Below, piece after piece: positions 20,101-48,309 of a stretch of 64,000 bases of DNA. The DNA comes from Rhynchopus sp. YZ270_cl-10 (taxonomy: Eukaryota), in the NCBI GenBank assembly GCA_964035575.1, contig OZ037835.1:992001-1056000 (forward strand), read 5' to 3'. Within the stretch, counting starts at the first letter, position 1. Each line of letters opens with the position of its first letter. A model generated the notes under the pieces. The model searched no databases and was not told the DNA's origin. It saw only the letters and a list, made by a program, of their open reading frames with translations. The position numbers and the translations under genes are program-made.

Positions 20101-21148
20101 TTCAGGCTTCCGCGTTCAGGATCTCATCTTTCTGATGTGTGTCCCTGTTCATATGTTGTGGCCAGGTTCTGCCCCACATTCCTTCCTCCCAACCCTGGCA
20201 GCGATACAGCCGCACTGCCAAGAGAGCCACGCCTTGTGGATAGGTGAGGAACCCCACACCACAAAGCACTGCTTCGCGAAGCCGCAGCACCACTGCCTCC
20301 ACCCACACACTCCGCTGTCTCCACCCACCCCACGCAAGGAAGAACGCCAAAGGTGCTCTCGTGCTGCAACCACAGACAAGCTGAGGTGCCAGACAAATGC
20401 ACGAAAGCACCCCACGGCCGGCCACAGCTTCCCCTCTCCCATCATTTCCACAAAACGATGCAGGGAAGCGCCACACCCAAACCCCCCCACACTCACAACA
20501 CTGTGCAACATCCACCACACCCCTGCCTCCAGCACAGCCTCCCTCACAAGAGTTCCCTCCACACCCCAAGAAGACAGTCAAAGACCACGTGGTGTCAACG
20601 AGTTCAGAGTGATGAATTACAGAAAAAAGAGGGTTGGGTGCGGAGGTACGTTGTAATGAATAAGACATGGGTTTTTGTGGGATTATTTTGCAGCACACCA
20701 TAAAATAACCTCGGGGAGGTGCTGCCCTCCCACCAACACACCACGTCGTCATTGTGCGTGTCTCCGTCACTTCTGGCTTTGCTCGGGGGATTCGTCTCTG
20801 CTTCGTTTTGGACGTGCTTCAACCACAAGCTTCCTCAGCTTCTCGTCCTTCCTCACTTCGTTGGACACAACACTGCTGCAGCCGGAAAGGTAAATGCTCG
20901 TCAACGAAGTGCAGTTCTCAGCAAAATGCGTACCTCCAAAACCGCTACTAATGTGCGTCACATTGCTGAGTGGTGACAAATCCAGGGTTGTTAAGCTGTT
21001 GCATCCGAAAAGAAAGCCGCTCTTAATCTGCGTCACGTTGCTGAGTGCAGATATATCCAGGGTCGTTAAGCTGCTGCAGCTCTGAAGGAACCACGCACCA
21101 ACCTGCGTCACGTTGCTCAACCCAGAGAGGTCGATACTTGTCAACGAG

Positions 21149-21752
21149 ATATTAAACTTGAAAAACGTGATCCACCCCCGCAAAAAGAAAAACCAGCAAA
21201 AGGGAAGGATGGCACCACGGTGTGCCAGAGAGTGGCTTGATCCCATTTGCTGACTTATACCCAACAAAGAAGCGACACCTAAGTGAACAGGGGCCGTATA
21301 CCACCGCTGGTGGCCTAGGTTAGTATATAAGCCAGTTCAAGGTCCGCACTCTGGCAGCGTCAAAAGAAATAAACAACAATAAAACCACCAGTCATTCCAA
21401 TGGGAGGAACGAATGACTGGCATCTCCTAATTCTCTAAACTGCGGTGAGTGGAACACCCAACTGATGCAAACCACTGCCGCAGGTTAGCACCTACAAAAA
21501 GCAAAGAAAAGAAAAGCAAAAGCTGTGCATGGTCGTAAAGTAGGTGCAGGGTCGCTTAAATCCCTGAGGGCACAAAAAGCCCAGCATACACCTCCTCCAG
21601 TTGCTTTGGACCCTCCAGTATCATGTGCCCGGGTTTGCAAAAGTGCAATGCAACCATCCCACGCGTGGCCTTCGTTCACTCAAAAAAGAGATTATATCCG
21701 GGGACGCCAGGGCAAAAATGCCGGGGGGCTGCCACCTCACGTTTTTGTCCCC
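21149..21752 (-). mobile_element. 604-bp non-coding SINE-like retroelement at Ubl-LRR site C
   Basis: 18-bp TSD TCGAYACTTGTCAACGAG (21131-21148 / 21753-21770, one mismatch); HDV-like fold at 5' end; no poly(A). Confidence 0.85.
21661..21752 (-). ncRNA. HDV-like ribozyme candidate with a hairpin inserted in L3
   Basis: P1 GGGGAC/GTCCCC, P2 GTGGC/GCCAC (extended by ACGT/GCGT), P3 GCC/GGC, P1.1 CC/GG, P4 CTC-T6-GAG, J4/2 C-GAA; G1 is the first base after the TSD. Confidence 0.65.
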
Positions 21753-22010
21753 TCGACACTTGTCAACGAGGTGCAGCATTCCAGGAACCTGTCTCCAATG
21801 TGAGTCACAATGGACTCAGCACTGAGATCAAGTCTCGTCAATGAAGTGCGTGCCAAGAACCCAAACGGAATGACAGTCGCAACCTCCGCCTGCAGAAGCA
21901 AACACGCCACCTCAGGATCCTCCACACTCTCCAACCTCTCGGCGGTCAGGTCTGTCTCACCCAACGCACGAAGCTCTGCAATGGCTTGGTACTTCTGCGT
22001 CTTCGTGAGG

Positions 22011-23836
22011 GTGGTAGTCCGTTTTAACGGTCTCTGGCAGGCCGGGCCTTTCTGTGGCCTTCCCAACCAAAAGACCCCCAAAAAACACAGGTACCTGCTG
22101 CGTTTAGTGGTACTTTACCCCAGTCCCTGGAACAGATCGGCAAGCCGACCAGCCCAGGTATGCATGCCAACACTACTGGGGGTGCACTGTTCGATAGCAT
22201 AAAAGAAAAGTCAAAAAGTCAAAAAGACAAGAAGGTCAAACAAAATAGGTACTTCGAACAGGGCTGACAGGAGGGGATTCTCACCCGAGGTTCGGTGCCT
22301 GTCAGGCTGCGATTAGTGGTTCTGGGTGATTCCCTTCTTCCTAGCCACCGTTACCGCGGTGCCCACACCGTAAGAGAATGGGGACGGTTCACGACCGTTC
22401 GTACGCGTCAGCAAAAGTAGGGGTCGGAGTCCAGGCCCGAACCGGAAACATTAACCTCCGTTTTTCGAAACATTAAAAAGTAAAAATGAAAATCAACAGC
22501 AAGAGCAGTGTTGCTGTAAAAGAAACAGCAGCACCGTCAGCTAACATGTCCACACAATATGGCAGACGGCCACACAAAATTCCCCTGATTTGTACAGAGA
22601 AAGTTGTAACTTCTTCCTTACAAGTAAGGGAGTACCGGTAGGGAAGGAGTTACAACAAACAGTGAACAAACTCAAGTACCAGCCTTTCCGCGTAGCACAG
22701 ACCCTACATTTGGTAGTTGGTCTGCCCTACTGCCTCTTCTGCACCGTAGCTGAATGCCACGGCGACAACTCCTTCATCTATCAACGTACCAAAGCACGTG
22801 AAAATAGAACAAAAACAAACACATTGGAAAACAACAGAGCATGTACCTGCAGAGTGCACACACCCTGAAAGTTTAACCTCTTCCTTCTAGCACAGACGCT
22901 GGTCTGCCCTACTGCCTCTTCTGCACCGTAGCTGGACGCCACGGCGACAACTCCTTCATCTCCAACGTACCAAAGCACGTGAAAATAGAACAAAAATAAA
23001 CACATTGGAAAAACAGCAGAGCATGTACCTGCAGATCCACAGTTGTTTCACGTACAGTGCATACACCCTGAAAGTTTAACCTCTTCCTTCTAGCACAGAC
23101 GTTGGTCTGCCCTACTGCCTCTTCTGCACCGTAGCTGAATGCCACGGCGACAACTTGTACCCACCTGCGAATGAATGTCCGCAGATCCCTTCTTCTACTA
23201 ACGTATAAAAACGTAAAAACAGACCAAAAACTACAACATGCCACACTGAATTAACGACAGAGCACGCACCTGCAGATCCACAGATGTTTCACTACGGTGT
23301 ACACAGCCTGAGGTTAAACACATAACACAAGAATTCTACTACGGCAAAAAGATGACAACTGAACTGAACTGAACAAAACTACAACACACCACACTGAATA
23401 CACAAGAGCACGTACCTGCTGATCCACAGTTGTTTCACATACAGTGTACGCACCAACAAAGCAACACAACGTTCCCATGCGGTCAAACGACAACACAGGA
23501 ACAGCAACAATATTCCGTCACCAGTAGAGACACCGGCAACGCTTCCTTCTTGTACCTGGGATCCCCTCATCGGCATCAACACACTCCCAGTCACCGCACA
23601 GGTAACAGATCCTTGAAACCCCTCCGAAGGGGTTTGCGTAGCCTACATAAGCTGGTGATCTGCCCGAAATTGACTGTGATGTTGTGTTAATAACCAGGGT
23701 TCCCACATCGGCTTGTTCCTCCTCCGGTCCCGAGCGAATCCATCATTGGAGAGGCGGCCGCCCACGCTGACTCAGTACCATGCGAACACGGCGTCCAGGG
23801 GCCCCACTTGGCGGTTGGTCAGACGTTAATTGCCCC
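22011..23836 (-). mobile_element. 1.83-kb non-coding composite retroelement with internal tandem repeats at Ubl-LRR site A
   Basis: 19-bp TSD CTTCTGCGTCTTCGTGAGG (21992-22010 / 23837-23855); HDV-like 5' end; ~180-200-bp repeats starting ~22718, 22900, 23103. Confidence 0.85.
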
Positions 23837-23837
23837 C
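23764..23837 (-). ncRNA. HDV-like ribozyme candidate (P3/L3 deviant)
   Basis: P1 GGGGGC/GCCCCT with G1.U wobble followed by GG; P2 ACG(T)CTGAC/GTCAGCGT; P4 GCCGTG-TTCG-CATGGT; J4/2 A-C-TGA. Confidence 0.6.
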
Positions 23838-24931
23838 TTCTGCGTCTTCGTGAGGATGATTGTGTCACCAGCACTCAGCTGCGTCATGTCCGCTCCTTCT
23901 CCCAGCGGTTCGTCTCCGAAACTCATGCAAAAGCCGTCTTCAGGCAACCCCATTGCAGACGCCACCTTCCGCCGCAAGCCCTCCACTGTGTCATCTGCAC
24001 CCACCTCGACTGTGTGCTGATTCGTGTCGAAACCCTTGATGTTCAGGTCCATGTCTTTGTTGTGGTTTTGTGTTCTGATCTCTGTGTGTGGTGGGTGTGG
24101 GGTTTATGATCGTACTCTTAGAGGTCAAAAGAAATCAAACAAAAGCAAAAAGGGGAGAATGAGGGAGGAATCTGTTATCAATTGGCACTGTTAGTGCGAA
24201 ATGTACGTGCGGGGAGGGAACGAAAAAACACGGAAAAAATAATTCTGAAGAATATTGACAACATTGACTGAGAAAACAGCTATAAAAAAGGCGTAAAAAG
24301 GCGTTCACACAGGATCCTTAAAAGACAGCAAATAGAAGGAGTACGCTTTGCAGGAGGTGTCAGAATCCTTGTTTGTAACTTATTACGCATCCACTTGACG
24401 TTTGGATAAAGAAAAACAGAGACAAAAGGGGGTTTGGGGGAAGAGTTTAATTCTTGAACACATCCCCACACTCAGTCACACAAGGCCTTTGCACAAATAT
24501 GTCCACAGTCAACTCATTTAGAGTCATCCACGTGAACTTCCTTCAGCAGTGCCTGCAGAAGCTCTCGTGTTGACCTTCGGGACAAAAGAGTAAACAACTT
24601 CATGCATATTGGAGTGGCCAATCCTCCTGTAGCATGGAAAAAGGCAAAATAGAAATAGAGTCATTGAGTGAGAAAACAGCAATAAAAAGGCGTAAAGCCA
24701 AAAAGGCAGAGGAGTGAAAAGAAAGCTTCACAATGGGGACACAGCGTAACATAACACAATGTGTGGAACGTCTTGCTCAGCACAGCTCTCCTCTCGCACC
24801 AAGTAGTAGTCTGTGCCACGGTGAGCAAGACTGTGCCCCTCTTCTTCTCCGAACCAGAGGACGCAGCAGACATACTGCCAGAGACCCTCCACCTCGGGGA
24901 GGTGCTGCCCTCCCACCAACACACCACGTCG

Positions 24932-25768
24932 TCATTGTGCGTGTCTCCGTCGCTTCTGGCTTTGCTCGGGGGATTCGTCTCTGCTTCGTTTCGGACGTGC
25001 TTCAACCACAAGCTTCCTCAGCTTCTCGTCCTTCCTTACTTCGTTGGACGCAACACTGCTGCAGCCAGAAAGATAAATGCTCGTCAACGAAGTGCAGCTC
25101 GCAGCAAAACTCGAACCTATAAAACCGCTACTAATGTGCGTCACGTTGCCGAGTGGAGACAAATCGAGGGTCGTTAAGCTCCTGCAGGTCTGAAGGAAGT
25201 ACGGACCAACGTGCGTCACGTTGCTGAGTGGAGACAAGTCCAGGGTCGTTAAACTGATGCAGTTCCGAAGGAAGCTTTCATCAACCTGCGTCACTTTGCT
25301 CAACCCAGAGAGGTTGATACTTGTCAACGAGGTGCAGTAGGCCAGGAAGCTGTCTCCAATGCGAGTCACAATGGACTCAGCACTGAGATCAAGTCTCGTC
25401 AACGAAGTGCCTGACAAGAATGCAAACGGAATGACAGTCGCAACCTCCGCCTGCAGAAGCAAACACGCCACCTCAGGATCCTCCACACTCTCCAACCTCT
25501 CGGCGGTCAGGTCTGTCTCACCCAACTTATGAAGCTCTGCAATGGCTTGGTACTTCTGCGTCTTCGTGAGGATGATTGTGTCACCAGCACTCAGCTGCGT
25601 CATGTCCGCTCCTTCTCCCAGCGGCTCGTCTCCGAAACTCATGCAAAAGCCGTCTTCAGGCAACCCCATTGCAGACGCCACCTTCCGCCGCAAGCCCTCC
25701 ACTGTGTCATCTGCACCCACCTCGACTGTGTGCTGATTCGTGTCGAAACCCTTGATGTTCAGGTCCAT
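24932..25768 (-). CDS. Ubl-LRR protein, copy 4 (278 aa)
   Basis: Intact ORF with all three target sites empty. Confidence 0.9.
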   Translation of the reverse strand: MDLNIKGFDTNQHTVEVGADDTVEGLRRKVASAMGLPEDGFCMSFGDEPLGEGADMTQLSAGDTIILTKTQKYQAIAELHKLGETDLTAERLESVEDPEVACLLLQAEVATVIPFAFLSGTSLTRLDLSAESIVTRIGDSFLAYCTSLTSINLSGLSKVTQVDESFLRNCISLTTLDLSPLSNVTHVGPYFLQTCRSLTTLDLSPLGNVTHISSGFIGSSFAASCTSLTSIYLSGCSSVASNEVRKDEKLRKLVVEARPKRSRDESPEQSQKRRRHAQ

Positions 25769-27772: not shown

Positions 27773-28891
27773 TCACTTCTGGCTTTGCTCGGGGGATTCG
27801 TCTCTGCTTCGTTTTGGACGTGCTTCAACCACAAGCTTCCTCAGCATCTGGTTTTTCGACACTTCGTTGGACACAACACTGCTGCAGCCGGAAAGGTAAA
27901 TGCTCGTCAACGAAGTGCAGTTCTCAACAAAATGCGTACCTCCAAAACCGTTACCAATATGTGTCACTTTGCTGAGTGGTGACAAATCCAGGGTTGTTAA
28001 GCTCTTGCATCCGGAAAGAAAGTTCTTCATAATCGACGTCACGCTGCTGAGTGGAGATAAATCGAGTGCGGTTAAGCTCTTGCATCCGAAAAGAAATTTA
28101 TCATTAATCTGCGTTACGTTTCTGAGTGGAGATATATCCAGGGTCGTTAAGCCGCTGCAGTTCCACAGGAAGCGCGGACCAACCTGCGTTACGCTGCTGG
28201 GTGCAGATAAATCGATGGTCGTTAAACTGCTGCAGCTCTCAAGGAAGCCCGCACCAACCAGCGTCACATTGCTGAGTGCAGATAAATCGAGCGCGGTTAA
28301 GCTCATGCAGGCGAAAAGAAAGTCGGCATTAATCTGCGTCACGTTGCTGAGTGCAGATATATCCAGGGTCGTTAAGCTGCTGCAGTTCCAAAGGAAGCAC
28401 TCACCAACCTCCGTCACATTGCTCAACCCAGAGAGGTCGATACTTGTCAACGAGGTGCAGCTTTCCAGGAAGTCGTCTCCAATGTGAGTCACAATGGACT
28501 CAGCACTGAGATCAAGTCTCGTCAACGAAGTGCGTGACAAGAACCCACTCGGAATGACAGTCGCAACCTCCGCCTGCAGAAGCAAACACGCCACCTCAGG
28601 ATCCTCCACACTCTCCAACCTCTCGGCGGTCAGGTCTGTCTCACCCAACGCATGAAGCTCTGCAATGGCTTGGTACTTCTGCGTCTTCGTGAGGATGATT
28701 GTGTCACCAGCACTCAGCTGCGTCATGTCCGCTCCTTCTCCCAGCGCTTCGTCTCCGAAACTCATGCAAAAGCCGTCTTCAGGCAACCCCATTGCAGACG
28801 CCACCTTCCGCCGCAAGCCCTCCACTGTGTCATCTGCACCCACCTCGACTGTATGCTGATTCGTGTCGAAACCCTTGATGTTCAGGTCCAT
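27773..28891 (-). CDS. Ubl-LRR protein, copy 5 (372 aa, short TGA C-terminus)
   Basis: Intact paralog. Confidence 0.9.
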   Translation of the reverse strand: MDLNIKGFDTNQHTVEVGADDTVEGLRRKVASAMGLPEDGFCMSFGDEALGEGADMTQLSAGDTIILTKTQKYQAIAELHALGETDLTAERLESVEDPEVACLLLQAEVATVIPSGFLSRTSLTRLDLSAESIVTHIGDDFLESCTSLTSIDLSGLSNVTEVGECFLWNCSSLTTLDISALSNVTQINADFLFACMSLTALDLSALSNVTLVGAGFLESCSSLTTIDLSAPSSVTQVGPRFLWNCSGLTTLDISPLRNVTQINDKFLFGCKSLTALDLSPLSSVTSIMKNFLSGCKSLTTLDLSPLSKVTHIGNGFGGTHFVENCTSLTSIYLSGCSSVVSNEVSKNQMLRKLVVEARPKRSRDESPEQSQK

Positions 28892-30102: not shown

Positions 30103-31164
30103 TCATTGTGCGTGTCTCTGTCGCTTCTGGCTTTGCTCGGGGGATTCGTCTCTGCTTCGTTTTGGACGTGTTTCAACCACAAGCTCACTCAGCATCTGGT
30201 TTTGCGATACTTCGTTGGACACAACACTGCTGCAGCCGGAAAGGTAAATACTCGTCAACAAAGTGCAGTTCGCAGCAAAATACGTCATTCCAAAAGCGTT
30301 ACTAATATGCGTCACGTTGCTGAGTGGAGATAAATCCAGGGTTGTTAAGCTGCTGCAGTACCATAGGAAGCCCGCACCAACCTGCGTCACGTTCCTGAGT
30401 GAAGATATATCCAGGGTCGTTAAGCTGCTGCATCCGGAAAGAAAGTAGCTCATAATCGACGTCACGTTGCTGAGTGGAGATAAATCTAAGGTTTTTAAGC
30501 TGCTGCATTCCTGAAGGAAGCACGCACCCAACTGCGTCACATTGCTGAGTGCAGATATATCCACGGTTGTTAAGCTCCTGCAGTGATGAAGGAAGCCTGT
30601 ACCAACCTGCATCACGTTGCTGAGTGGTGATATATCTAGGGTTGTTAAGTTGATGCAGTCACAACAGAAGTTCAAACCAACCTGAGTAACATTGTTCAAC
30701 CCAGAGAGGTCGACACTTGTCAACGAGGTGCACTCTGCCAGGAACCTGTCTCCAATGTGAGTCACAATAGACTCAGCACTGAGATCAAGTCTCGTCAACG
30801 AAGTGCCTGACAAGAACCCATTCGGAATGACAGTCGCAACCTCCGCCTGCAGAAGCAAACACGCCACCTCAGGATCCTCCACACTCTCCAACCTCTCGGC
30901 GGTCAGGTCTGTCTCACCCAACTTATGAAGCTCTGCAATGGCTTGGTACTTCTGCGTCTTCGTGAGGATGATTGTGTCACCAGCACTCAGCTGCGTCATG
31001 TCCGCTCCTTCTCCCAGCGGCTCGTCTCCGAAACTCATGCCAAAGCCGTCTTCAGGCAACCCCATTGCAGACGCCACCTTCCGCCGCAAGCCCTCCACTG
31101 TGTCATCTGCACCCACCTCGACTGTGTGCTGATTCGTGTCGAAACCCTTGATGTTCAGGTCCAT
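30103..31164 (-). CDS. Ubl-LRR protein, copy 6 (353 aa)
   Basis: Intact paralog. Confidence 0.9.
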   Translation of the reverse strand: MDLNIKGFDTNQHTVEVGADDTVEGLRRKVASAMGLPEDGFGMSFGDEPLGEGADMTQLSAGDTIILTKTQKYQAIAELHKLGETDLTAERLESVEDPEVACLLLQAEVATVIPNGFLSGTSLTRLDLSAESIVTHIGDRFLAECTSLTSVDLSGLNNVTQVGLNFCCDCINLTTLDISPLSNVMQVGTGFLHHCRSLTTVDISALSNVTQLGACFLQECSSLKTLDLSPLSNVTSIMSYFLSGCSSLTTLDISSLRNVTQVGAGFLWYCSSLTTLDLSPLSNVTHISNAFGMTYFAANCTLLTSIYLSGCSSVVSNEVSQNQMLSELVVETRPKRSRDESPEQSQKRQRHAQ

Positions 31165-32654: not shown

Positions 32655-33256
32655 ATAAACGTTTTTAAAAATAGGATGGAACACCCCGTTCCGAAGAGGA
32701 ATGCAGCCACCCCGAAAAAGTGGGGGTGTGTCGCCAGTCTGCGGTGAGAAACTCCTCCCTGAGTCAAAACTGCCGCTGGTTAGCGCTGGCTAAGGTTCCC
32801 TTTTCACCCGGTCACAATCGAGTCTCGCTCCGTCGGCGTTGACTGCACTGCAAAGCCCCTTGGTCCACCGTCGTAAAAAGACACCACAAAAAGCGTAGGT
32901 AGGTGGGGGACCGGCAGGTTACAGACAGAGGCAGTACGGAGCTAAGGTGTCGGCGGTCGCGGGTTTCCGTGGAGGCCTGCCCCCCGTGGAGGTCTTGGGA
33001 TCTGGGAGTTGTGGAAGTAATCGGCTCAGAGTACCCTGCATTCCATGCACGACTCGAGCTCCTTGTGGTAGGATATTGGGGTCCCGGGAAGCACCCTTCG
33101 CCCCGAGGTCCCACCACCCCAGACAGTTTGTAGGTCTAAAAGCACAACGTACTTGTCCAGGACCTGGCCGCTCTTGGGTTCTCTCGAAAAAAAGATACTA
33201 ATCCCGTACGCCCGTGCACCGCAAAAATGTGCTATGGGGGGCGGTCCGCCGTCGGG
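32655..33256 (-). mobile_element. 602-bp SINE-like partner of the 7.36-kb LINE, at Ubl-LRR site B
   Basis: 20-bp TSD ACTCTTCAACCTCTCGGCGG (32635-32654 / 33257-33276); 3'-terminal 59 nt match the LINE 3' end at 56/59. Confidence 0.9.
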
Positions 33257-33341
33257 ACTCTTCAACCTCTCGGCGGTCAGGTCTGTCTCACCCAACGCAT
33301 GAAGCTCTGCAATGGCTTGGTACTTCCTCATCTTCGTGAGG

Positions 33342-38270: not shown

Positions 38271-40665
38271 GGCTTCGACGCTCAGGGCCATCTTCCTGAT
38301 GTGTTTGTTTGCAGAAGCTGGTGTGTTGTCGCTGTTCGTGTACTGCTGTGATATGTTCTGGGCAGTCTTGCTGTACCCAAGCAGAGAGTCCTCCCTACCC
38401 ACACACAGCTCTGCACACTGTTCCCACTCACCCCACCCCACTGGCAGAGGCGACACAGTGCTGCTATAAGATGCAGTACCACCCATAGACACTCCGCTGT
38501 CTCCACCCACCCCACGCAAGGAAGAACGCCAAAGGTGCTCTCGTGCTGCAACCACAGACAAGCTGAGGTGCCAGACAAATGCACGAAAGCATCCCACGGC
38601 CGGCCACAGCTTCCCCTCTCCCATCATTTTCACAAAACGATGCAGGGAAGCGCCACACCCAAACACCCCCCACACTCACAACACTGTGCACCTCCACCTC
38701 CCTGTCCCCACCCAACCCAACCCACAGACCTTCACCGCAACAGGGAGAACACCCAAACCCCACATCAACCTGCCACTCCCTTGGGTACTCTTCCTCCAGG
38801 CAAAAGCCATCAAGAGAAACGGTTACCACCCCCGGGGTTGCCTCCTCCTCCTTTGTGCAGCGCTGCTGCACTTCCCACACCCACCCCGCCCCACGATGTC
38901 TCCCACCTCGCAGAAATGAAAGTCAAATATAATAAAAACCCCTTTCATCTTTTGTTTAGTTGGTACGCTACCCACGTCATACGCAAAGTATTTGTCCTAA
39001 TAAAACAAATACATCCGTTCACTCGATTAATGTTGAAGACTCATGGCAACCGAAGAACGCGTCTTTCATTTCCAGACGTATTGCATAAAGGCGTTGATTC
39101 AAAAGGGGGCAACAATCACGAGAATGGGAATAGTGGTGGAGAGATTGAGAAGGTGAACGCTTCCCTCCCCTCCATGTCACACTTTGTGTATCAGTATTGA
39201 TAAGGTTGACACAGCCTGGCACAATACTGTCCGATCCGGTGACGTTGGTCCTGCTTCTACTCATTTTGCACCCTTTAAGGAAGCCAAAACCAACTATAGT
39301 GAAGTTTGAGGGGCGGTTCACGCTAAAGGGAGTCCCAGAAGCATAGTTTCATTTCATAGTTTCATTTACCCATATGAGCAATTGGTGGCAATGACCAAAT
39401 TTGTATCAATCAAGAACTTGCTAATTTTTCCGAAATGACCCCACTACAGTGGGGGTAGAGCTCGGAAAATCCGAAAAAGGCCAAAAACCTCTCCAAAAAC
39501 GGGGAAAAAACGATACAACATTTCCAGAATTTTGCTGTTTCCCCAGTAGTTTTTTCTTGTGTGCGTGCGTACAGATTGTTTGGGGAGGTTGGGACCCAGA
39601 ACAAGAAAAAAACTTGTGCTTCCCTAAATAATGAAACCCCCGTTCATCTTTTGTTTAGTTGGTACGCTACCCACGTCATACGCCCCAAGCACCCCAAGAC
39701 GACAGTGAAAGACCACGTGGTGTCAACGAGTTCAGGAGTGATGAATTGCAGATAAAAAGGGGGTTGGGTGGGGAGGTACGTTGTAATGAATAAGACATGG
39801 GTTTTTGTGGGGATTCTTTTGCAGCACAGTTGAACATAACACAATGTGTGGAACGTCTTGCTCAGCACAGCTCTCCTCTCGCACCAAGTAGCAGTCTGTG
39901 CCACGGTGAGCAAGACTGTGCCCCTCTTCTTCTCCGAACCAGAGGACGCAGCAGACATACTGCCAGAGACACTCCACCTCGGGGAGGTGCTGCCCTCCCA
40001 CCAACACACCACGTCGTCATTGTGCGTGTCTCCGTCGCTTCTGGCTTTGCTCGGGGGACTCGTCTCTGCTTCGTTTCGGACGTGCTTCAACCACAAGCTT
40101 CCTCAGCTTCTCGCCCTTCCTCACTTCGTTGGACACAACACTGCTGCAGCCGGAAAGGTAAATGCTCGCCAACGAAGTGCAGCCCGCAACAATATTTGTA
40201 CCGAATAAACCGCTACTAATGTGCGTCACGTTGCTGAGTGGAGATAAATCGAGGGTCGTTAAGCTGATGCATTCCTGAAGGAAGTGCGCACCAACGTGCG
40301 TCAGGTTGCTGAGTGGAGATAAATGGACGTTGGTTAAGCTCTTGCATCCGTAAAGAAAGCCGCCGTCAATCAGCGTCACGTTGCTGAGTGCAGATATATC
40401 CAGGGTCGTTAAGCTGCTGCAGTGCTGAAGGAACCACGCACCAACCTGCATCACATTGCTCAACCCAGAGAGGTCGACACTTGTCAACGAGGTGCAGTTG
40501 GCCAGGAAGCAGTCTCCAATGTGAGTCACAATGGACTCAGCACTGAGATCAAGTCTCGTCAACGAAGTGCGTGACAAGAACCCATTCGGAATGACAGTCG
40601 CAACCTCCGCCTGCAGAAGCAAACACGCCACCTCAGGATCCTCCACACTCTCCAACCTCTCGGCG

Positions 40666-43600
40666 ATAAACGTTTTTAAAAATAGGATGGAGCACCCCGG
40701 TCCGAAAAGGAATGCAGCCACCCCTGGCTTCAGGCTCGCGAACCCAGCGTTGATGTAACACAGGGTTTCACGGGCCAAAACCAGAAAAAAATGAAAAATT
40801 GAGGGTTCAACGACTGCGCCAACTGGTCTCATGCGACGTTGAACCAACTTAAAATCTAGAATCTTGTGTCAACTTGTAAAGAAAAGCAATGAATATTAAA
40901 ATTACCGGTTTCAGGCGTGGCGTACACGTCTGCTGCCATCTACGCTGGGATAGCCGTCCGGTTTGAACTTGGGGTTCAACAACAGTGCCAAATGGACTTA
41001 TGCGTCGCTGTGTCAACTGAAAAACAATGAAAAACAAGAATGTCGTTGAGGAAGATTGAAATGCATGAAAAACAAGAAGAACAAGGTAAAATATCTACAG
41101 AGGGTGCTGTCCTAGCTTGTCCTCTTTCGTTGTCTCGCCCACACTAAGCTTCTCAACGGCCGTGCAGGCGAGCTTTGTGGCGTTCACGTTGTTACTGCTG
41201 TCGATGTGCACCAACGTGATGCTTCGGGTCGCTCTCAGCTTGTCAAGCTCACCCCGCGCCTCTTTCTGGAGGTGGGCGACTGCCGCGTATGGTCTGCAGT
41301 GCTCGTTCACCTGGTCAACCACGGTTCTACTGGATCCGTAGATGTTCAGTGGTGTGGTGTCTGTGTCGCTCTTCAGGTATTCGAGGCACATCAGCAGTCC
41401 TTCATACTCCGCGACGTTCAGGGTTGTGTCCGCCAGGCGACTGCTGGCTGTCCACCGCACCTCGCCATCTATCTCGAGGCGTGCACCTGCGCCCGATCCC
41501 TGGCAAGTGTTTTTCTTCACCCTCGCCCCCGGCTGCCTCACGTTGCAGTATCCGCCGAAGAAGATGCGAGTGTGTCCGGTGGGTTTCTTTGGTTTTCGTC
41601 GAGCCTGCTTCTGCTGCTTCTGCTCAGCAGCCAAGCGGATGTGCTTCGCAATTCTGTCTGCTCTCTCCTGTTTGCAGTCCTCGTCTAGGGGTGGGAGCTC
41701 TGTGTTCGTCCAGGATTTGTTCCCTTTGCAGAGGGTTGGCAGGGACCGGATCGTCTTGAGCACCTCAGCAGGTTCGGTGAGGATGGGTCGTCTCGTGATC
41801 GCTAGGGTTCCCCACTTGATGCCTAGGTCTAATGGGGCGAACACTTTGCTCTTGGGGTAGATGGTGCCCGAGAAGAGGTACGCGTTTGCTGCCACTATCT
41901 TTGCCTTAGCCATCCAGTTGCTGAACCAGGTGATTTTGTCGGTGATCATGGAGCTCTCTCGGGAATTGGGTTCCTCTGTGGTGAGCTTTGCTCCTGTGTG
42001 CGCTTCGAAGTCCAGCGCCAGCTCCAGGTGCGAGACGTGCTGTGATTTCCCATTGGACACCGTCGGCCACTTTAGGCTTTCCAGCCACTCCTTGAGTGCG
42101 AGGTATCCTTCCGCTTTGTACGGCCACGCGTCTGGCACCTCGTCAGGAAGTACTCCTATGTAGGTCTCGTATGGGCCTTCTGGTTCCCATGTCCAGGGAA
42201 AATTGTCCATTTGGCTCGTCTTCGTTGTAGTGGTACCGCGTTTTCTCTTGTCCTCCCTCTCTAGGGCGATGTCTGAGTACATGAGAAGCAGCAGCTCTAG
42301 GGCTTCTCTGTTCGGCACTTCCGGAATCATCTGGAAGCCGGCGGGGAGAATGGCGTTGAGGCGCAGGCATTTCGGCCAGCTTTCTCTTACTGCTGGATCG
42401 GACACTCCTGCGTATTTGTGCTGTTCGCGTATGTGTGCGGTGTGGCTGCATTGTTCCCACATGTGTTCAAAGTCCTCCACACCTGTGCCGCAGTGCTCGC
42501 ACGTGTCACTGGTGCTCATCTTCATTCTTTTGCGCCTGTCCTGTGTGAGCTCCGCTCCTGCAAGAATGTTCCTCATGTACCCTGCACGCAGTGGATCTGT
42601 GTTCTTGTAGCTGTTCCACACGGCGTTGATCGTGCGATAATCGATGCCATCTTTAACCCCTTGCATGTCCTCCCTCCTTGTCTCGAGTCTACGGCAGAAA
42701 TCGTCCCTGATACCGTCTCGGAGTTGGTGTCGAAGAAGGTCACCCTCGGGTTCGTCGAGGTTCATCTGTGTTGTGTGCGGGGGCAATAGGGTGTTGTTCT
42801 CCCAGCGCCAGTTCATGGATTGGGTGGTGCGGAGGAGGATGTCTACCGGTCCACAGTATTTTACTCTCGACGTCCGCTTCAGGATACGGATCTCGTCTAT
42901 TAGGGTTCTAATCTCCTGGTTCTTCCCCATGGTGTAGAGCGCGAGCAGGCGTTGGTACTTGAGGTAAGATGTTGGGTCTGTCCGGTGTAGCGGGTTCAGC
43001 ACTCCCCTCACTATTTCACTGCATCTGCTAGGTAGGCCCCTCCAAATCGCCGCCGTCACTGCTTTGGTGAGCCTTCCAGCGGTGGTGGACAGCGGCTCGT
43101 ACGTCTCGCAGCCGTAGAGTGCCATGGGCATTATTTTTGTCGCCACCAGTTCGGCTCTGCCTTCAAAGGGGACGTTGAGGTGAGGGATACGTCGCGCACA
43201 TGTCTCAGCTTTGCGCACTCGCTTGTCCAGCTTTGTCGCTGCTTCCTTTTTCTTGGCTACGGCCAGTCTGATCACTGCGCCGAGATTGTCCAGTTCCTTC
43301 TTCTCCTGTCTCAGCTGGGTGTCTCCGAGCATGAGCTCCAGCTTTTCGGTCTTGGCTGTCGAGAAGGAGAAACTACTTCCGTACGTGAGGTCGGTCTTGG
43401 TGGCGAAGTCGTGGGACACTGTGAGGCCTTTCCTCAATTGTGCGGTGTTGTTCGAGGTCATGGTGGTGTCGTCCGCGTACAGGCTTGTCCGACATCTGGT
43501 TTCCGTCCGAACCGCCGCCTCCCACACTGCTAGGAGGGCGTTCAGCAGGATAATGCTCAGCGCACATCCCTGCAGAATGCCATTGTTCGCTTTGAACTCC

Positions 43601-46600
43601 TCACCGACCGTACCGTATAGTTTGAACCGCCTCTTCAGGTCCCTGTACATGCTCTTGAGGGGCCGCGTGATCTTCATGTCGATCCCCATTTTCTCCACAA
43701 GACTGAAGGTTATGTCCCACGGTATGGTGTCGAAGCATTTCTTAATGTCCAGAAATACTCCTCGCAGCGTGTTCCCCGACACCATTGCTTTTTCGACCAG
43801 GAGTGCGGTGAGGTAAAAAGCGTCACGTGTTCCGTGCCCAGTCCTGAAGCCGTGCATGGATTCCGGTGCCCATGTCTCTTGCCACACCATTAGGCTCGTC
43901 AACCTTGTCTTTGCCCATAGCCGATATACCGCCGACATCACGGAAATTGGTCGGTGGTCGAGTGGTTGTGGGTCCTCCACCTTGGCGATCATGCTCACGG
44001 TCGCGTGGAGGAGAGCTTCTGGCCATACGCCCGTCTCTTCTACTTGGTTGAGGATTGATGCCAGCCTGTCGAAGATCCCCGTTGGGAGAAGCGCAAGTTC
44101 TTCTGGGTGCCATCCGTCTGTGCTGGGGGCCTTCCCCTTCGGCATGCTCTCGGCCACGGCTTTCAGCATCCTTCCGGTTAGGGGTTCTACGTGCATCGGC
44201 CGTTGAGGTATGTGTGTGCCAAACCTTTCCTCGAACGCTTCCCACGTGGGTGTGTCACTCAGGGTGTTGTGCTTTTGAAGTATGGGAAGCCATGCCTCAC
44301 GCAACCACGTGTCCATGTCCTCCACATTCGCGGTCTCTTCCGTCCCGCGCTTCATCGTGTTGCACCGCATTTTGGCTCCGTTGAGGCGCTTGTAGATGAG
44401 CCCTGGTGTGGTGTGCCATTGCGTGCGTATCATGCGGTACCTTTGCGTGGCCCTGTCCCTCTCCAGGTTCTTTCTGGCAGTTTCGAGTCTCTGGTGCAGG
44501 CGCTGTATCAGCTCCAGTGTCGTGCTGGCCTGCGGCTCCTCCTCTGGGGTAGCGTCGAGAATGCTCACCAGCCCTGCCTTCGCTTTGTCCCACGCCTTGC
44601 GTGCGCTGGGTGTGAGGGCTCCTTTGGTGCGTAGAGTGTTGCCGACCTCAGTTAGTCTGCGGATCGTCTTCCGGATGCGCGTCATCTTGAGGGTCTCTCC
44701 TGCGTCGCCTTCGCGAGACTGTCTGCTGCACAGCCAGGTGCGTCGCAGTTTGGGTGGTCGGCCTTTGCGAAAACATGCTGCTGAGTTGTCGTCTCCCTGC
44801 CGTGCCCAGAAGTTGGTCGCATCCTCATTCCATGCTTTCCACTTGTCCTCTACCAATGTGCTTGCGTGCCATTGTGCTTTGGAACCATCGCAGATCTCTT
44901 CAGCCTCCTTTTCAAGGTCTGCCTTCGTTTTCTTCCTGCTCAGTTCATCCTGTTGTAGCATAGGGGGCCTTTCCTGCTTGAGCACACGCTGCCGGTACGT
45001 CATATTTTTAAATGTCGCGTCCAGGGGGATGTGTGAAGGTATTCCGGCCGTCCCCGTTTTGCACCCTGCCAGCGCAAGCACCGCGATTTGGTTGGCCAGT
45101 ATGATGTCAATTCGTGAGCACACACTTTTGGCTTCAGACTTTGTGCTCTTACCGATGTGGGTGTGCTCTGGCTCTTGGTTGGCCCAGCCCGCGGCTCGTT
45201 CGGCACAGTCCGTCCATCGTTCTGAGCTGATGGCTAGGGATATTGCTTCGCTTGAGCTGGGTTCTGGGTGGCTGTTGCAATCCCCGAGGATAATCGCTGG
45301 TACGTCCCCTATCTCTGCTTCTGCAAATACATCCGATAGGAAGCTCTCGCGCTCTTGCTTTGCTTGCGGGGAGTTGCCGACTTTGGCGTATATCACGAAT
45401 AGGTGTAGAAAATGGTTCCCTGCCCCATGTGCCACCTTTGCGTGCAGGTAACGCTTTGAGTCCCAGAGTCTCTTTGCTCGTTCAGTATCTCTCCTGACCA
45501 CACTTGCTGGTATGCCTCGTTTCACCATTAGGCCCACCCCCTTGTGCTCTCCGTAGCTCTGTTGTATTGCATTTGGAAGTAACTTTACTGGGCACCCCCA
45601 GAGACCTGTCCAGCCTTGTTCATACAGCGTTCGGGAAGCTTGGGCCTGTTTCTTCTGTGTGAGCCGAGTCTCCTGCAGTGCGACTATGTCGTTGTCCCAA
45701 CTCCACACCTCCTCCTGGTGAGCATTCATTGAGGTGATGTTGGCAGTACGTATGGACAGGTTTGGAGTGGCCCGGGCAGCGCGGCGTCGCTTTCTCTCCG
45801 TCTTGGTACGTTTCCGTGAGCGAGACACTGCGATATTCGTGTCCAGGTTCTCCAGCGTGACACAGCGGTTGCCTTCTGCCTGCGTCGTTGCAATCAGCGA
45901 CAGCAGCCCCTCGGTTGCTTTGAGGCGGTCGAAGTGCTCGGGCCTGTACGTGAGCACAACTGGGTTCGATGTAGGTGGTCCGCCGACGTGGCTAAACCGT
46001 TTCGCTCTGGCATCCAGTACCCAGATGGCCCTGTCGAGTATGCTTGCCGCAGTCTGTAGCTCACGTTCTCCACCGTACGTTCCTTGCATTCTCATTTTGG
46101 CTAGGTGTTGCGTGTAGGTGGGAGGTTCGTTTGCCTCAGGAGAGTAGCTGTCAGCATAGAGGTCACTGTCGTCGTTTTGCAGTACGTCCACCACCCGTTG
46201 TCGCAGTGAGTTCGTTGTCCACCCCTCGCTCTGCTCAGCTATGGCAGTGAATAGGCAGTCCCCGTCTGGCGCTACTGCTATCCTTGTAGAGTTGATACTG
46301 CGGGCTGTTGCGTCCAACCACTCCTTGTGGTCGGTGATGGCCCTCAGTGGGTTCACGGGATTGTCGTTGTTTTTGGGGTAGGCGCTCCTACCTATCCCCG
46401 GTTCTATGTGCGATTCTAAGTACGTATCTAATCTAGTGGGGTCTGCCTTTGCGTCCAGCCAGTTTCTAGTTTGTTCTAATTCTAAGAGGGGGTCGGGAGT
46501 TGATTTACAGGGGATAGGGGAAGGAGAGTTCAGAGATCGAGGTTGAAGTCGAGCAGGTTCGCTTGTCCTTGGCTTTTCCCTGGGTCGTCTTTTCCCTTTC

Positions 46601-48027
46601 CCTTTCCCTTCTTCCCCGCCAGCGGCGACGCGGAGAAGATGTCGTCGAGGGAGGCGGCCGCGGATGGCGGGGCGGTGGTTCCCCCTTTCCCCTTTCCCCT
46701 TTCCCGCCTTCCCCTTTGCAAGTGGGGTCTTTGCCCCCTTGTTTGTCTCCGCGGGAGACGGCGTGGGTGCCTGCGGCGGAGTCTTCAGCGACTCTGCGTC
46801 AGGGAGTGGTGATGGGGGTCGTGGGGAGCTGGGCTGTGAGGCGGTGGTGGCGTTGGCGTTGGTGTTGGTGCTGGTGTTGGCGGATACCACCCTCAGGATG
46901 TGCTGCAGGCACTCCTCCGTCGAGATCTGCCGAGCCTCGATGCTCTGCAGACGCCCATCCATGCCGTGTAGCACGGCCGTCGTTTCGGCGTGCTGCGACG
47001 CCTGTCGTTCCAGCAGGGCTTCGATGCCCTTGCCCATCCCTTCCACCCCGATGCTCATGGCCTCGAGTCCCCTGCCCATGTGCAGAAGGGCAGCCGTGGT
47101 CTCCTGGCCTGTGCGTGATAGCTGTGTCAGCGCGGCCGCGTTCTGCTGCACCACCGAGAGCAGCGGGTCGAGGTTCTGAGGTGTGGTGAAGGTCTGTTGG
47201 TGATGGGATCTTTGCTCCTTGCGCTGCAGCCATGCCAGCTCCAGCTGTGTGCCTTCCTCGAAGAGAAGTTTGCCTCTGGCTGCCCCGTACTCCTGCCTGA
47301 ACTCTGCAATGGTATACTTATCCTTGCGGTTCCTCACCGTGGGGTCGGGGACTCTCTTGGGGGCGTGGTTGTGGTTGGTGGTGGTGGTGGTACTAGTATC
47401 CTTTGCTTCTGCGGGGAAGATTGACACCACAACGTTTTGCCACTTGATGCTGCGGTGTGGGGGCTGGGACTCCGCACGCACCACGAGGGTCTTCTCCCCC
47501 GTTCTGCCCTTGTTGAGCAGCGTCACCACCCGCGCCCCCTCCCACTGCATCGCCTTCAATGCGGTGACGCAGTCCGCTCTGGTTGCCTGGGGTGGGACAG
47601 GTCTGAGGTCGTATACCCGGGCGGCGGAGTTCGTTGCCTTGCTGTCGGGTATCTCGAGTGTGAATGGGGGGGTGTCGTCCATAGCCTCCGGGGTGTCGCC
47701 GCTGCTTCCTCCCCTTAGCCTACCCAGCTCCCACACGTTGCAGTGCGTCCTGCACATCCGGAGCGACTCCTTGTCGCTCATGTCCCTTCCGTTGATGGTA
47801 AGGCGTTGCACGTCTCTGCGTCCACCTGTCTTCGCTCGCACTGCCGCCTTCAGGTCAGCCACCGAGTCCGCGTCGCTGACGTCCACTGTCACTGTCTTTC
47901 CAGTAAGCGTTCGCACAAAAATCTGTCTTTTTTCTTCGTCGTTTTCTTCTTCTTCTTCTTCCGAGTCTTTGCCGCAGTCCACTGCGTTGCCCGGGGTCAC
48001 CTCGTGGAGGTGCTCGGTAAAAACCCC
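40666..48027 (-). mobile_element. Full-length APE-type non-LTR retrotransposon (7.36 kb) at Ubl-LRR site B
   Basis: 19-bp TSD ACTCTCCAACCTCTCGGCG (40647-40665 / 48028-48046); 5' HDV-like ribozyme; one long ORF; ~430-nt 3' UTR; no poly(A) tail. Confidence 0.95.
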
Positions 48028-48309
48028 ACTCTCCAACCTCTCGGCGGTCAGGTCTGTCTCACCCAACGCATGAAGCTCTGCAATGGCTTGGTACTTCTGC
48101 GTCTTCGTGAGGATGATTGTGTCACCAGCACTCAGCTGCGTCATGTCCGCTCCTTCTCCCATCGCTTCGTCTCCGAAACTCATGCCAAAGCCGTCTTCAG
48201 GCAACCCCATTGCAGACGCCACCTTCCGACGCAAGCCCTCCACTGTGTCATCTGCACCCACCTCGACTGTGTGCTGATTCGTGTCGAAACCCTTGATGTT
48301 CAGGTCCAT
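41095..48309 (-). CDS. Host Ubl (94 aa) fused to retrotransposon polyprotein: Ub-RLRGG, coiled-coil ORF1-like region, OTU protease, APE endonuclease, RT, CCHC finger, RNase H-like (2404 aa)
   Basis: Ub QIFVRTLTGKT...RLRGG (47707-47928); OTU DGDCLF...YGGERE...EHFD (~45920-46290); APE TANI, LQET, GDCN, SRID (~45020-45760); RT LDIKKCFD, LQGCALS, YADD; CEHC..EDFEHMWEQC; RNase H NVAEYEGL (~41170-41570). Confidence 0.9.
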   Translation of the reverse strand: MDLNIKGFDTNQHTVEVGADDTVEGLRRKVASAMGLPEDGFGMSFGDEAMGEGADMTQLSAGDTIILTKTQKYQAIAELHALGETDLTAERLESGVFTEHLHEVTPGNAVDCGKDSEEEEEENDEEKRQIFVRTLTGKTVTVDVSDADSVADLKAAVRAKTGGRRDVQRLTINGRDMSDKESLRMCRTHCNVWELGRLRGGSSGDTPEAMDDTPPFTLEIPDSKATNSAARVYDLRPVPPQATRADCVTALKAMQWEGARVVTLLNKGRTGEKTLVVRAESQPPHRSIKWQNVVVSIFPAEAKDTSTTTTTNHNHAPKRVPDPTVRNRKDKYTIAEFRQEYGAARGKLLFEEGTQLELAWLQRKEQRSHHQQTFTTPQNLDPLLSVVQQNAAALTQLSRTGQETTAALLHMGRGLEAMSIGVEGMGKGIEALLERQASQHAETTAVLHGMDGRLQSIEARQISTEECLQHILRVVSANTSTNTNANATTASQPSSPRPPSPLPDAESLKTPPQAPTPSPAETNKGAKTPLAKGKAGKGKGERGNHRPAIRGRLPRRHLLRVAAGGEEGKGKGKRRPREKPRTSEPARLQPRSLNSPSPIPCKSTPDPLLELEQTRNWLDAKADPTRLDTYLESHIEPGIGRSAYPKNNDNPVNPLRAITDHKEWLDATARSINSTRIAVAPDGDCLFTAIAEQSEGWTTNSLRQRVVDVLQNDDSDLYADSYSPEANEPPTYTQHLAKMRMQGTYGGERELQTAASILDRAIWVLDARAKRFSHVGGPPTSNPVVLTYRPEHFDRLKATEGLLSLIATTQAEGNRCVTLENLDTNIAVSRSRKRTKTERKRRRAARATPNLSIRTANITSMNAHQEEVWSWDNDIVALQETRLTQKKQAQASRTLYEQGWTGLWGCPVKLLPNAIQQSYGEHKGVGLMVKRGIPASVVRRDTERAKRLWDSKRYLHAKVAHGAGNHFLHLFVIYAKVGNSPQAKQERESFLSDVFAEAEIGDVPAIILGDCNSHPEPSSSEAISLAISSERWTDCAERAAGWANQEPEHTHIGKSTKSEAKSVCSRIDIILANQIAVLALAGCKTGTAGIPSHIPLDATFKNMTYRQRVLKQERPPMLQQDELSRKKTKADLEKEAEEICDGSKAQWHASTLVEDKWKAWNEDATNFWARQGDDNSAACFRKGRPPKLRRTWLCSRQSREGDAGETLKMTRIRKTIRRLTEVGNTLRTKGALTPSARKAWDKAKAGLVSILDATPEEEPQASTTLELIQRLHQRLETARKNLERDRATQRYRMIRTQWHTTPGLIYKRLNGAKMRCNTMKRGTEETANVEDMDTWLREAWLPILQKHNTLSDTPTWEAFEERFGTHIPQRPMHVEPLTGRMLKAVAESMPKGKAPSTDGWHPEELALLPTGIFDRLASILNQVEETGVWPEALLHATVSMIAKVEDPQPLDHRPISVMSAVYRLWAKTRLTSLMVWQETWAPESMHGFRTGHGTRDAFYLTALLVEKAMVSGNTLRGVFLDIKKCFDTIPWDITFSLVEKMGIDMKITRPLKSMYRDLKRRFKLYGTVGEEFKANNGILQGCALSIILLNALLAVWEAAVRTETRCRTSLYADDTTMTSNNTAQLRKGLTVSHDFATKTDLTYGSSFSFSTAKTEKLELMLGDTQLRQEKKELDNLGAVIRLAVAKKKEAATKLDKRVRKAETCARRIPHLNVPFEGRAELVATKIMPMALYGCETYEPLSTTAGRLTKAVTAAIWRGLPSRCSEIVRGVLNPLHRTDPTSYLKYQRLLALYTMGKNQEIRTLIDEIRILKRTSRVKYCGPVDILLRTTQSMNWRWENNTLLPPHTTQMNLDEPEGDLLRHQLRDGIRDDFCRRLETRREDMQGVKDGIDYRTINAVWNSYKNTDPLRAGYMRNILAGAELTQDRRKRMKMSTSDTCEHCGTGVEDFEHMWEQCSHTAHIREQHKYAGVSDPAVRESWPKCLRLNAILPAGFQMIPEVPNREALELLLLMYSDIALEREDKRKRGTTTTKTSQMDNFPWTWEPEGPYETYIGVLPDEVPDAWPYKAEGYLALKEWLESLKWPTVSNGKSQHVSHLELALDFEAHTGAKLTTEEPNSRESSMITDKITWFSNWMAKAKIVAANAYLFSGTIYPKSKVFAPLDLGIKWGTLAITRRPILTEPAEVLKTIRSLPTLCKGNKSWTNTELPPLDEDCKQERADRIAKHIRLAAEQKQQKQARRKPKKPTGHTRIFFGGYCNVRQPGARVKKNTCQGSGAGARLEIDGEVRWTASSRLADTTLNVAEYEGLLMCLEYLKSDTDTTPLNIYGSSRTVVDQVNEHCRPYAAVAHLQKEARGELDKLRATRSITLVHIDSSNNVNATKLACTAVEKLSVGETTKEDKLGQHPL
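47961..48027 (-). ncRNA. HDV-like self-cleaving ribozyme
   Basis: GGGGTT TTTA CCGAGC ACC TCCACGA GGT GACCCC GG GCAA CGCAGT GG ACTGCG G C AAA GACTCGG parses as P1, P2, P3, canonical L3, P1', P1.1, GCAA, P4, catalytic C, P2'. Confidence 0.88.

Follow-up and report, generated by a model that had tools for sequence, protein, structure and literature searches.

What are the interruptions in a tandem family of protein-coding genes, and why do they fall at so few positions? The window, i.e., the whole 64-kb stretch of DNA analysed here, carries nine Ubl-LRR genes on its minus strand, with a ubiquitin-like domain and LRR_5 repeats according to Pfam; the family is tandem and recombining, and it is not RHS. 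The sequence-only reading had described five insertions with target-site duplications (TSDs) of 18–20 bp in three of these nine genes, and both the coordinates and the TSDs were confirmed (Table 1). All five elements lie in sense orientation relative to the host gene and none carries a poly(A) tail. The three proposed sites held as well, with 5′ junctions 215/216 nt (site A), 282/282 nt (site B) and 455 nt (site C) from the ATG, so that they span 240 bp of one coding region; the probability of five insertions all falling within the first 500 nt of nine genes by chance is ~5e-6. Once element and one TSD copy were removed in silico, the three interrupted genes regained open reading frames (272, 272 and 303 aa). 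On either side of each element, the TSD carries the variant of the gene concerned: between the two TSDs at site B one base differs, in step with their genes, and the TSD of the element at 33342 has a variant present in none of the other eight Ubl-LRR copies. These are therefore true duplications rather than target sequence brought by RNA, which excludes that the target sequence was carried in via upstream ribozyme cleavage, as in some R2s. The ankyrin genes had been read as insertion-free, which stands for four complete, uninterrupted ORFs, while the fifth gene runs past the window end. No rRNA, SL or tRNA genes were found in the 64-kb window. Probably, distinct APE-type LINE families and their non-coding partners hold three fixed sites in the conserved 5′ coding part of the Ubl-LRR genes, each endonuclease likely nicking its own target there.

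Table 1. Features of the window; the higher coordinate of each Ubl-LRR gene marks its ATG.
Feature	Coordinates	Strand	Details
Ubl-LRR gene, empty	9301..10326	(-)	
Ubl-LRR gene, empty	12729..13796	(-)	PF00240 + PF13306 LRR_5
Ubl-LRR gene with insertions at sites A and C	20767..24052	(-)	
604-bp non-autonomous element	21149..21752	(-)	site C, 18-bp TSD, 1 mismatch
HDV-like fold from nt 1 of 604-bp element, L3 hairpin	21665..21752	(-)	extended descriptor
1.8-kb non-coding partner, internal repeats	22011..23836	(-)	site A, 19-bp TSD
HDV-like fold, 5′ end of 1.8-kb element, 9-nt L3	23767..23837	(-)	strict descriptor
Ubl-LRR gene, empty	24932..25768	(-)	
Ubl-LRR gene, empty	27773..28891	(-)	
Ubl-LRR gene, empty	30103..31164	(-)	
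Ubl-LRR gene with insertions at sites A and B	32098..35347	(-)	
602-bp partner of LINE B	32655..33256	(-)	site B, 20-bp TSD
HDV-like fold, 2 nt inside 602-bp element; L3 hairpin, bulged P1	33168..33254	(-)	relaxed descriptor
LINE A1, 5′-truncated 3′ part, 1,791 bp	33342..35132	(-)	site A, 18-bp TSD
Ubl-LRR gene with LINE B at site B, in frame after codon 94	40017..48309	(-)	
LINE B, full length, 7,362 bp	40666..48027	(-)	site B, 19-bp TSD, no poly(A) tail
LINE B APE endonuclease and RT, catalytic motifs intact	43288..45696	(-)	PF03372, PF00078
OTU protease domain, start of LINE B ORF2, Cys and His present	46006..46269	(-)	PF02338, E 2.2e-7
Ubiquitin-like domain, LINE B ORF1, ends RLRGG	47707..47922	(-)	PF00240, E 9.6e-9
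HDV-like fold from nt 1 of LINE B	47959..48027	(-)	Rfam RF02682, 37.8 bits (gathering score 44), E 0.002; strict descriptor
Ubl-LRR gene, empty	58724..59860	(-)	

The expectation of at least two LINE families and several non-autonomous partners was borne out: LINEs A and B, with ~31% identity over APE-RT, occupy separate branches of the RT tree (a quick IQ-TREE result that includes only diplonemid-type and distant LINEs), there are three partners, and the evidence extends to ~10 contigs. Both LINEs fit APE-type non-LTR elements in their TSDs, varied 5′ truncation, constant 3′ end and intact RT and APE motifs; searches of PDB and the ESM Atlas gave generic RT/APE matches only and no clade placement. 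R2 uses a restriction-like endonuclease; the elements here carry an N-terminal APE and not the C-terminal restriction-like endonuclease of R2/CRE/SLACS. Full-length relatives of LINE A1 (P0132/P0133; 1,666 aa) comprise an N-terminal 2A-like peptide (DxExNPGP), of which A2 has an H variant, followed by APE and RT; PF00078 and PF03372 are present in A1 and A2, and a Pfam search of both matched no RNase H. At site C, the LINE fragment P0218 probably represents a third LINE family. LINE B has no 2A-like peptide of the DxExNPGP type; its ORF1 has an N-terminal ubiquitin-like domain that is not preceded by an AUG, and its ORF2 runs OTU-APE-RT-zf-RVT, with an RNase H-like domain devoid of the catalytic aspartates. 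The single LINE B frame of 2,452 codons is peculiar to the window copy: P0032 and P0036 stop ORF1 near 46530, and a G/A tract near 46.7 kb contains an indel in the window copy that is not in other copies.

The partners resemble the LINEs to different degrees. In the 602-bp element (~60 copies, judged by contig depth), the last 59 nt are 95% identical to LINE B, with no 5′ sequence in common. The 1.8-kb partner has a 9-nt motif, 5–6 nt from the 3′ end, in common with LINE A1, and its tail gave no significant local alignment to LINE A (322/2,000 shuffles). Head and one internal motif of the 604-bp element are related to the 602-bp element, and since its tail resembles that of LINE B only weakly (55/2,000 shuffles), the third LINE is its likelier driver. 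HDV-like folds occur at all four intact 5′ ends, namely those of LINE B and the three partners, and begin at the junction or at most 2 nt from it. The predicted structure is a nested double pseudoknot of P1, P1.1, P2, P3 and P4 with the catalytic C in J4/2; two of the carriers have a non-canonical L3 hairpin and one a 9-nt L3. The LINE B score for RF02682 falls under the family's gathering score, and Rfam scans of the three partners matched no ribozyme family. Our descriptors, composed after the candidates were seen, replaced an earlier, looser one that had matched 82/300 random windows: the strict descriptor gave 3 matches in 128,000 positions, all at two 5′ junctions, the extended one 7 matches, 6 of them at three junctions, and the relaxed one has a background of 1/24,169 random positions. 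The LINE B ribozyme sequence is not common to the partners, which argues against these being simple internal deletions.

Proteins on other contigs repeat the same site map, and fixed-site use within the Ubl-LRR family is seen across ~10 contigs. The best 150 of 588 matches to the host N-terminus include 84 family members, of which 42 were truncated before residue 170; 26 of the 42 break at residues 70–74, 92–94 or 152, corresponding to sites A, B and C (11 of 110 positions, binomial p 3e-16). Element family and site agreed in 21/21 junctions with a recognisable element, an assignment made partly by eye, in paralogues down to ~52% identity. Among the 15 listed of 19 LINE B cluster members, host flank is visible in four, in each case that of site B. 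They are the window copy, P0036, P0035 (its paralogue being 53% identical) and P0030, which follows another B tail in tandem. Two of the 22 listed of 41 LINE A cluster members show flank (P0126 in a 60% paralogue, and P0139 of subfamily A2), both at site A. Such protein fusions show only flanks with an open upstream frame, and in-frame cases are thereby favoured. Logan contigs add junction contigs from three studies, the best of those listed having 30 letters on both sides and none reaching 31. At the 3′ junction of the 602-bp element they contain synonymous paralogue variants within the TSD (8 and 6 contigs at 32650 in run X1, which may be the assembly's source), and no loose end was present there among the 18 listed of 186.

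It is somewhat unlikely, if still worth serious weight, that specificity is merely relative, as in ingi/L1Tc, with a short degenerate motif recognised genome-wide, the Ubl-LRR genes as a hot spot and many copies elsewhere. L1Tc and NARTc show relative site specificity only, according to the available portions of the source (PMC5814959). Several A-type 3′ ends run into sequence unlike the host gene at 85% (X1, X4 and X5; five records), as does one diverged 602-bp-type copy (X4), and these flanks may be distant paralogues or off-target copies. P0082, of a B subfamily, sits off site B at ~codon 46–50 of a distant paralogue, where the translation fits a site-B-like motif, and the B members P0031, P0033 and P0038 start with a common extension of 32 aa that has no counterpart in the window. 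However, 6/6 visible flanks among the 37 listed cluster members belong to the Ubl-LRR family, and no unrelated-flank loose end occurs at the 602-bp element's ends among those listed. In run X5, moreover, the consensus contig of this element is unbranched beyond the 3′ end (depth 29.6), and the contig over its site-B 5′ junction reaches a depth of 12.6 versus 27.8 in the element body (~45%).

Less probable still, and in our view unlikely, is that LINE B needs the capped mRNA and AUG of its host, such that host-Ubl/LINE fusions are made from uncut transcripts and released through Ubl-RLRGG/OTU. The missing AUG ahead of the ORF1 Ubl domain would fit such a dependence, as would the reading frame of three copies (the window copy, P0036 and P0082), in which no stop interrupts ORF1 between nt 1 and the end of the ribozyme and the host ATG lies in the same frame. 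Yet four B-type 5′ ends at site B (P0177, P0208, P0235 and P0282) have the ribozyme in the +1 frame and meet a stop within 10 codons, the in-frame cases are favoured by fusion detection, and D. papillatum relatives (P0016) have OTU too.

Very improbable is a scenario in which targeting is no longer active and unequal crossing-over and gene conversion multiplied a few ancient insertions along with the genes that hold them. Tandem arrangement and recombination of the host family would allow it, and P0030 and P0035 have one truncation point in common, so that some copies must have been duplicated after insertion. In contrast, elements that are 98–100% identical sit in paralogues of 52–60% identity with many different 5′ truncations, which argues for independent insertions, and their TSDs are paralogue-specific. 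The data already suggest that trees of elements and of host flanks would disagree. Chimeric joins at repeats during assembly are hardly credible: although the window LINE B has its private indel, the TSDs are gene-specific, the ORFs are exactly restored, and the same junctions recur on ~10 other contigs as well as in the junction contigs of three studies.

How might targeted insertion by distinct LINE families work? The elements likely spread by cutting themselves out of the host transcript. Euglenozoan gene groups are co-transcribed, and read-through transcription of the host cluster would include a co-oriented element; the HDV-like ribozyme would then cut the co-transcript at nt 1, as R2 is cut from pre-rRNA. 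The AUG-less ORFs might begin by non-AUG initiation, with the N-terminal leader removed by a 2A skip in LINE A and, in LINE B, by cleavage after Ubl-RLRGG, for which the element's OTU or a host deubiquitinase could be responsible. APE/RT would bind the family-specific 3′ tail and prime reverse transcription at its own site, the second cut being staggered by 18–20 nt. In the partners, a ribozyme head plus a tail of LINE type would be all that is kept, and the many copies of the host family could buffer the cost of insertion. More tentatively, and with rather more doubt than confidence, we propose that an entire diplonemid LINE lineage has adopted families of protein-coding repeat genes as its 'rDNA' and is promoterless, with strict per-family sites, escape by HDV-like ribozymes (the L3-hairpin variant included) and an AUG-less protein matured by Ubl/OTU.

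To our knowledge, LINEs with sequence specificity have RNA genes or simple repeats as targets in almost all cases. The exception of note among protein-coding genes is RHS, which offers a single site and is targeted with loose specificity. A tandem protein-coding family had been read as the target, and this holds, but ingi/RIME in RHS and TcTREZO in MASP pseudogenes, as the available parts of those reports describe them, are the closest precedent, which that reading missed, and LINE targeting of a protein-coding family is a known concept. In trypanosomes, ingi/RIME sit within the 5′ coding part of RHS genes (PMC7563717, available text). On the same partial record, both systems involve a euglenozoan multigene family that codes for proteins with a conserved N-terminus, a 5′ coding site, a LINE with its partner, and tandem insertions, and the RHS-like use of a fixed 5′ coding site by LINE and partner is found here at three sites. 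The disrupted share is also alike (>50% predicted for RHS in that text; here 3/9 genes and 42/84 representatives truncated). L1Tc, as far as the available descriptions go, combines a 5′ HDV-like ribozyme with an N-terminal 2A-like peptide; here the ribozyme fold is present in LINE B and the three partners, and the 2A in LINE A. Again in the parts available, RHS offers one site to one LINE clade, in contrast to three sites each with its own family. The host here is Ubl-LRR rather than RHS, the TSDs are 18–20 bp, and the elements show no intact RNase H after RT and no 3′ poly(A), unlike L1Tc/ingi. Unlike ingi/L1Tc, LINE B has a Ubl ORF1, an OTU and a degenerate RNase H-like domain, and two partners carry an L3 hairpin.

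R1/R2 and their SIDEs in 28S rDNA are alike in that several families use neighbouring fixed sites of a tandem array; there an HDV-like ribozyme frees the element from the co-transcript and partners consist of ribozyme plus 3′ end, as would also be the case here (PMC3414825, PMC3774820; both in their available portions); their target, on the same text, is an RNA gene and not a protein-coding one. TcTREZO of T. cruzi is likewise a site-specific element in a euglenozoan protein-coding multigene family, mostly in MASP pseudogenes; unlike the system here, it is composite and a single family, with no matching LINE described in the available text (PMC5814959). The LINEs of D. papillatum and Rhynchopus humris belong to the same radiation (38–44% identity to LINE B in the RT region) and have APE-RT, several with OTU and an RVT_3 RNase H. 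The D. papillatum genome paper goes no further than a count of ~2,500 gene models of this kind, leaving their analysis for later; its main text, in the portions available, contains no LINE targets or ribozymes (PMC10161547). Full-text literature searches, subscription papers aside, returned no paper that deals with the targets of diplonemid LINEs or with LINE-encoded Ubl/OTU; Ginger1 and Helitrons are reported to have OTU (PMC2836005, in part).

What is new, then, is the split of three sites among distinct families, the partners headed by HDV-like folds with an L3 hairpin, the Ubl/OTU layout and a sister LINE that uses a different protein-coding family. Three related APE endonucleases sharing out three sites in 240 bp represent a natural series on APE specificity change, a question that bears on RNA-templated gene insertion tools. 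With half of the sampled family representatives truncated, and 26 at these very sites, the elements emerge as one of the chief generators of pseudogenes in this rapidly evolving LRR family. If true, the Ubl-RLRGG/OTU pair would be a new route of LINE protein processing, and the HDV-like ribozyme with an L3 hairpin, if active, would widen the known fold.

The sister family of LINE B, 11/14 members of which lie on one 3.49-Mb contig, appears to show the same habit in another gene, one with Ubl-like and DUF4116 domains (P0048).

Are these insertions genuine, and are they tied to their host genes? The window is an array of intronless genes on one strand (Ubl-LRR, ankyrin, beta-propeller, PI-PLC X-like and Hsp70), nine of which are Ubl-LRR genes with PF00240 and PF13306 domains. 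The sequence-only reading had placed five insertions with 18–20-bp target-site duplications (TSDs) in three of the nine, and a TSD and ORF check recovered them all, with TSDs of 18 (one mismatch), 19, 20, 18 and 19 bp. Their 5′ junctions fall at the three proposed sites, 215/216 (A), 282/282 (B) and 455 nt (C) from the ATG, and all five elements lie in sense with the host gene, as had been read; none of the five carries a poly(A) tail. In silico deletion of element plus one TSD restores host ORFs of 272, 272 and 303 aa. Flanking each element, both TSD copies carry the variant of the gene they lie in, so the TSDs are staggered-cut duplications. We regard the insertion system in Ubl-LRR genes as real. 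The site-B TSD contains AG|GT, so that splicing from its first copy to its second would take out precisely the insertion; no such motif is present at sites A or C.

Does the pattern extend beyond the window? The host N-terminus returned 588 matches, of which the best 150 were counted. Of these, 84 belonged to the family (alignment beginning at the start, identity at least 45%), 42 running on and 42 truncated. The truncated members break at residues 70–74 (13), 92–94 (9) or 152 (4) in 26 of 42 cases, where 10% would be expected (p 3e-16). The 26 probably include the window's own gene, and in two of them the tail does not look like an element. The claim that the family serves as a target array was supported at 21 junctions outside the window where an element was recognised by tblastn or by eye: element family matched site in 21/21 (ten A-type junctions, all at site A; nine B-type, all at B; two C-type, both at C), and the paralogues concerned ranged down to 52% identity. 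Host flank was present in four of 15 listed LINE B members, always at site B (eight others begin inside the element, and three share an unexplained 32-aa extension), and in two of 22 listed LINE A members, both at site A, the other 20 beginning inside the element. The site-B TSD shows paralogue variants in the junction contigs. For the 602-bp element, ~45% of depth in sequencing run X5 spans a site-B 5′ junction, and among the 18 loose ends listed of 186 none is at its 3′ end. Against strict targeting, several A-type elements at their 3′ ends, and a single diverged copy of the 602-bp type, run into unlike sequence, and a B subfamily sits at ~codon 46–50 of a distant B-box-Ubl-LRR paralogue (P0082). 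No contig among those listed bridges a junction by the 31-letter rule. In a tandem insertion (P0030, 146,500-bp contig), the 3′ tail of one LINE B is followed by the site-B TSD and then by a truncated LINE B.

At least two LINE families had been proposed, and LINE A and LINE B are indeed ~31% identical; a quick RT tree of 30 rows puts them on different branches within the diplonemid LINE radiation. LINE B codes for a ubiquitin-like domain with RLRGG at its end, an OTU domain that keeps both Cys and His, APE, RT, zf-RVT and an RNase H-like domain whose aspartates have been lost. Its single frame in the window is due to an indel, other copies having an ORF1 stop near 46530, and in neither ORF does an AUG precede the first domain. 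Named homologues come from Diplonema papillatum and Rhynchopus humris (30–34% identity), which suggests that the window belongs to a further diplonemid. LINE A is a 3′ fragment; the full ORF of its family (1,666 aa) encodes a 2A-like peptide, APE and RT, and its subfamilies A1 (n=7) and A2 (n=34) are 77% identical. The 2A-like peptide (P0132/P0133 residues 73–88) is probably very similar to viral T2A; 2A-like motifs occur also in two unrelated homologues, P0013 and P0020. A 5′-truncated copy of LINE B's sister family (P0048, 3,491,368-bp contig) follows a Ubl-like, DUF4116-repeat host gene as an in-frame fusion. This single flank hints at a lineage-wide habit; 11 of 14 members of the cluster (P0002) lie on that contig.

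The suggestion of several non-autonomous partners also held. The last 59 nt of the 602-bp element are 95% identical to LINE B, and its head and one internal motif recur in the 604-bp element (each 0/2,000 shuffles). That ~55-nt motif forms a long stem in one element (z -2.6) and none in the other. The 1.8-kb element has only a 9-nt subterminal motif in common with LINE A, and their alignment is not significant. The 604-bp element is likely driven by a LINE whose C-terminal piece lies at site C (P0218; 41% identical to A1/A2, E 0.002). In run X1, contig depth scaled to ~100 for unique pieces roughly suggests ~10 copies of LINE B, ~40 of LINE A and ~60 of the 602-bp element, although depth is not copy number; the LINE A estimate of 40 tallies with 41 cluster members.

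HDV-like ribozymes, which the sequence-only reading had missed, are predicted at the 5′ ends from sequence folds, with descriptors tuned after the candidates were inspected. The Rfam model RF02682 matches LINE B at precisely nt 1–69 (37.8 bits, E 0.002, below gathering). The strict descriptor gave three matches in 128,000 positions, two at the LINE B junction and one at that of the 1.8-kb element. Allowing an L3 hairpin added the 604-bp element (fold at nt 1) and one stray match; once a bulged P1 was permitted as well, the 602-bp element joined them, its fold lying 2 nt inside the end (background 1/24,169). These searches found no such fold at the 5′-truncated LINE A.

How might the elements move? 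Quite probably, the APE of each LINE family nicks the coding site particular to that family. The element would be transcribed by read-through from the host gene cluster (in D. papillatum, groups of genes are likely transcribed together; PMC10161547), and its RNA freed by the predicted ribozyme. The ORF would be translated without an AUG and the protein trimmed by 2A (LINE A) or Ubl/OTU cleavage (LINE B), while partners may use the LINE machinery via their own tails. The sites, the TSDs, the match of family to site and the folds are observed, whereas all biochemical steps are inferred from R2 and L1Tc (PMC3774820, PMC4035085, PMC5814959). That LINE B obligately uses the host AUG is weakened, as four B-type heads are out of frame with the host.

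Published precedents, taken from excerpts, include the ingi/RIME hot spot in the 5′ coding region of trypanosome RHS genes, with predicted disruption of over half the family (PMC7563717); TcTREZO, inserted mostly in MASP pseudogenes, and L1Tc, with ribozyme and 2A but only relative site specificity (PMC5814959); and the multi-site R1/R2 and SIDE community in rDNA (PMC3414825). The Ubl-LRR elements work like the RHS system crossed with the rDNA community, yet belong to neither: they lie in a host gene other than RHS, use an APE endonuclease, and show neither a poly(A) tail nor an intact RNase H. Our literature search turned up no study of the targets of diplonemid LINEs or of LINEs with Ubl/OTU; the D. 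papillatum supplements may bear on both.

Elements and other features of the window
Feature	Position	Strand	Remark
604-bp element	21149-21752	minus	site C
1.8-kb element	22011-23836	minus	site A
602-bp element	32655-33256	minus	site B
LINE A	33342-35132	minus	site A
LINE B	40666-48027	minus	site B
Site-B TSD	32635-32654, 40647-40665		
~55-nt motif	21435-21495, 32735-32790	minus	604-bp and 602-bp elements
Hsp70 gene	49983-52013	minus	ORF ends without C-terminal EEVD
Dispersed T-rich repeat	36138-36190		many unrelated flanks in each of four runs; X1 has 80 contigs
9-bp tandem repeat	54196-54452		28.6 copies
Degenerate recurrent repeats	19000-20600, 35470-39800, 48580-48950, 55400-58000		upstream of Ubl-LRR genes
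Beta-propeller gene and inverted partial copy	1927-3165 and 25883-26641		92% identical

A C-terminal EEVD is the usual motif of cytosolic Hsp70. Neither the beta-propeller gene nor its inverted partial copy contains an insertion; the N-terminus of the gene looks Ubl-like. Some of the degenerate repeats hold ankyrin-like pseudogene frames.
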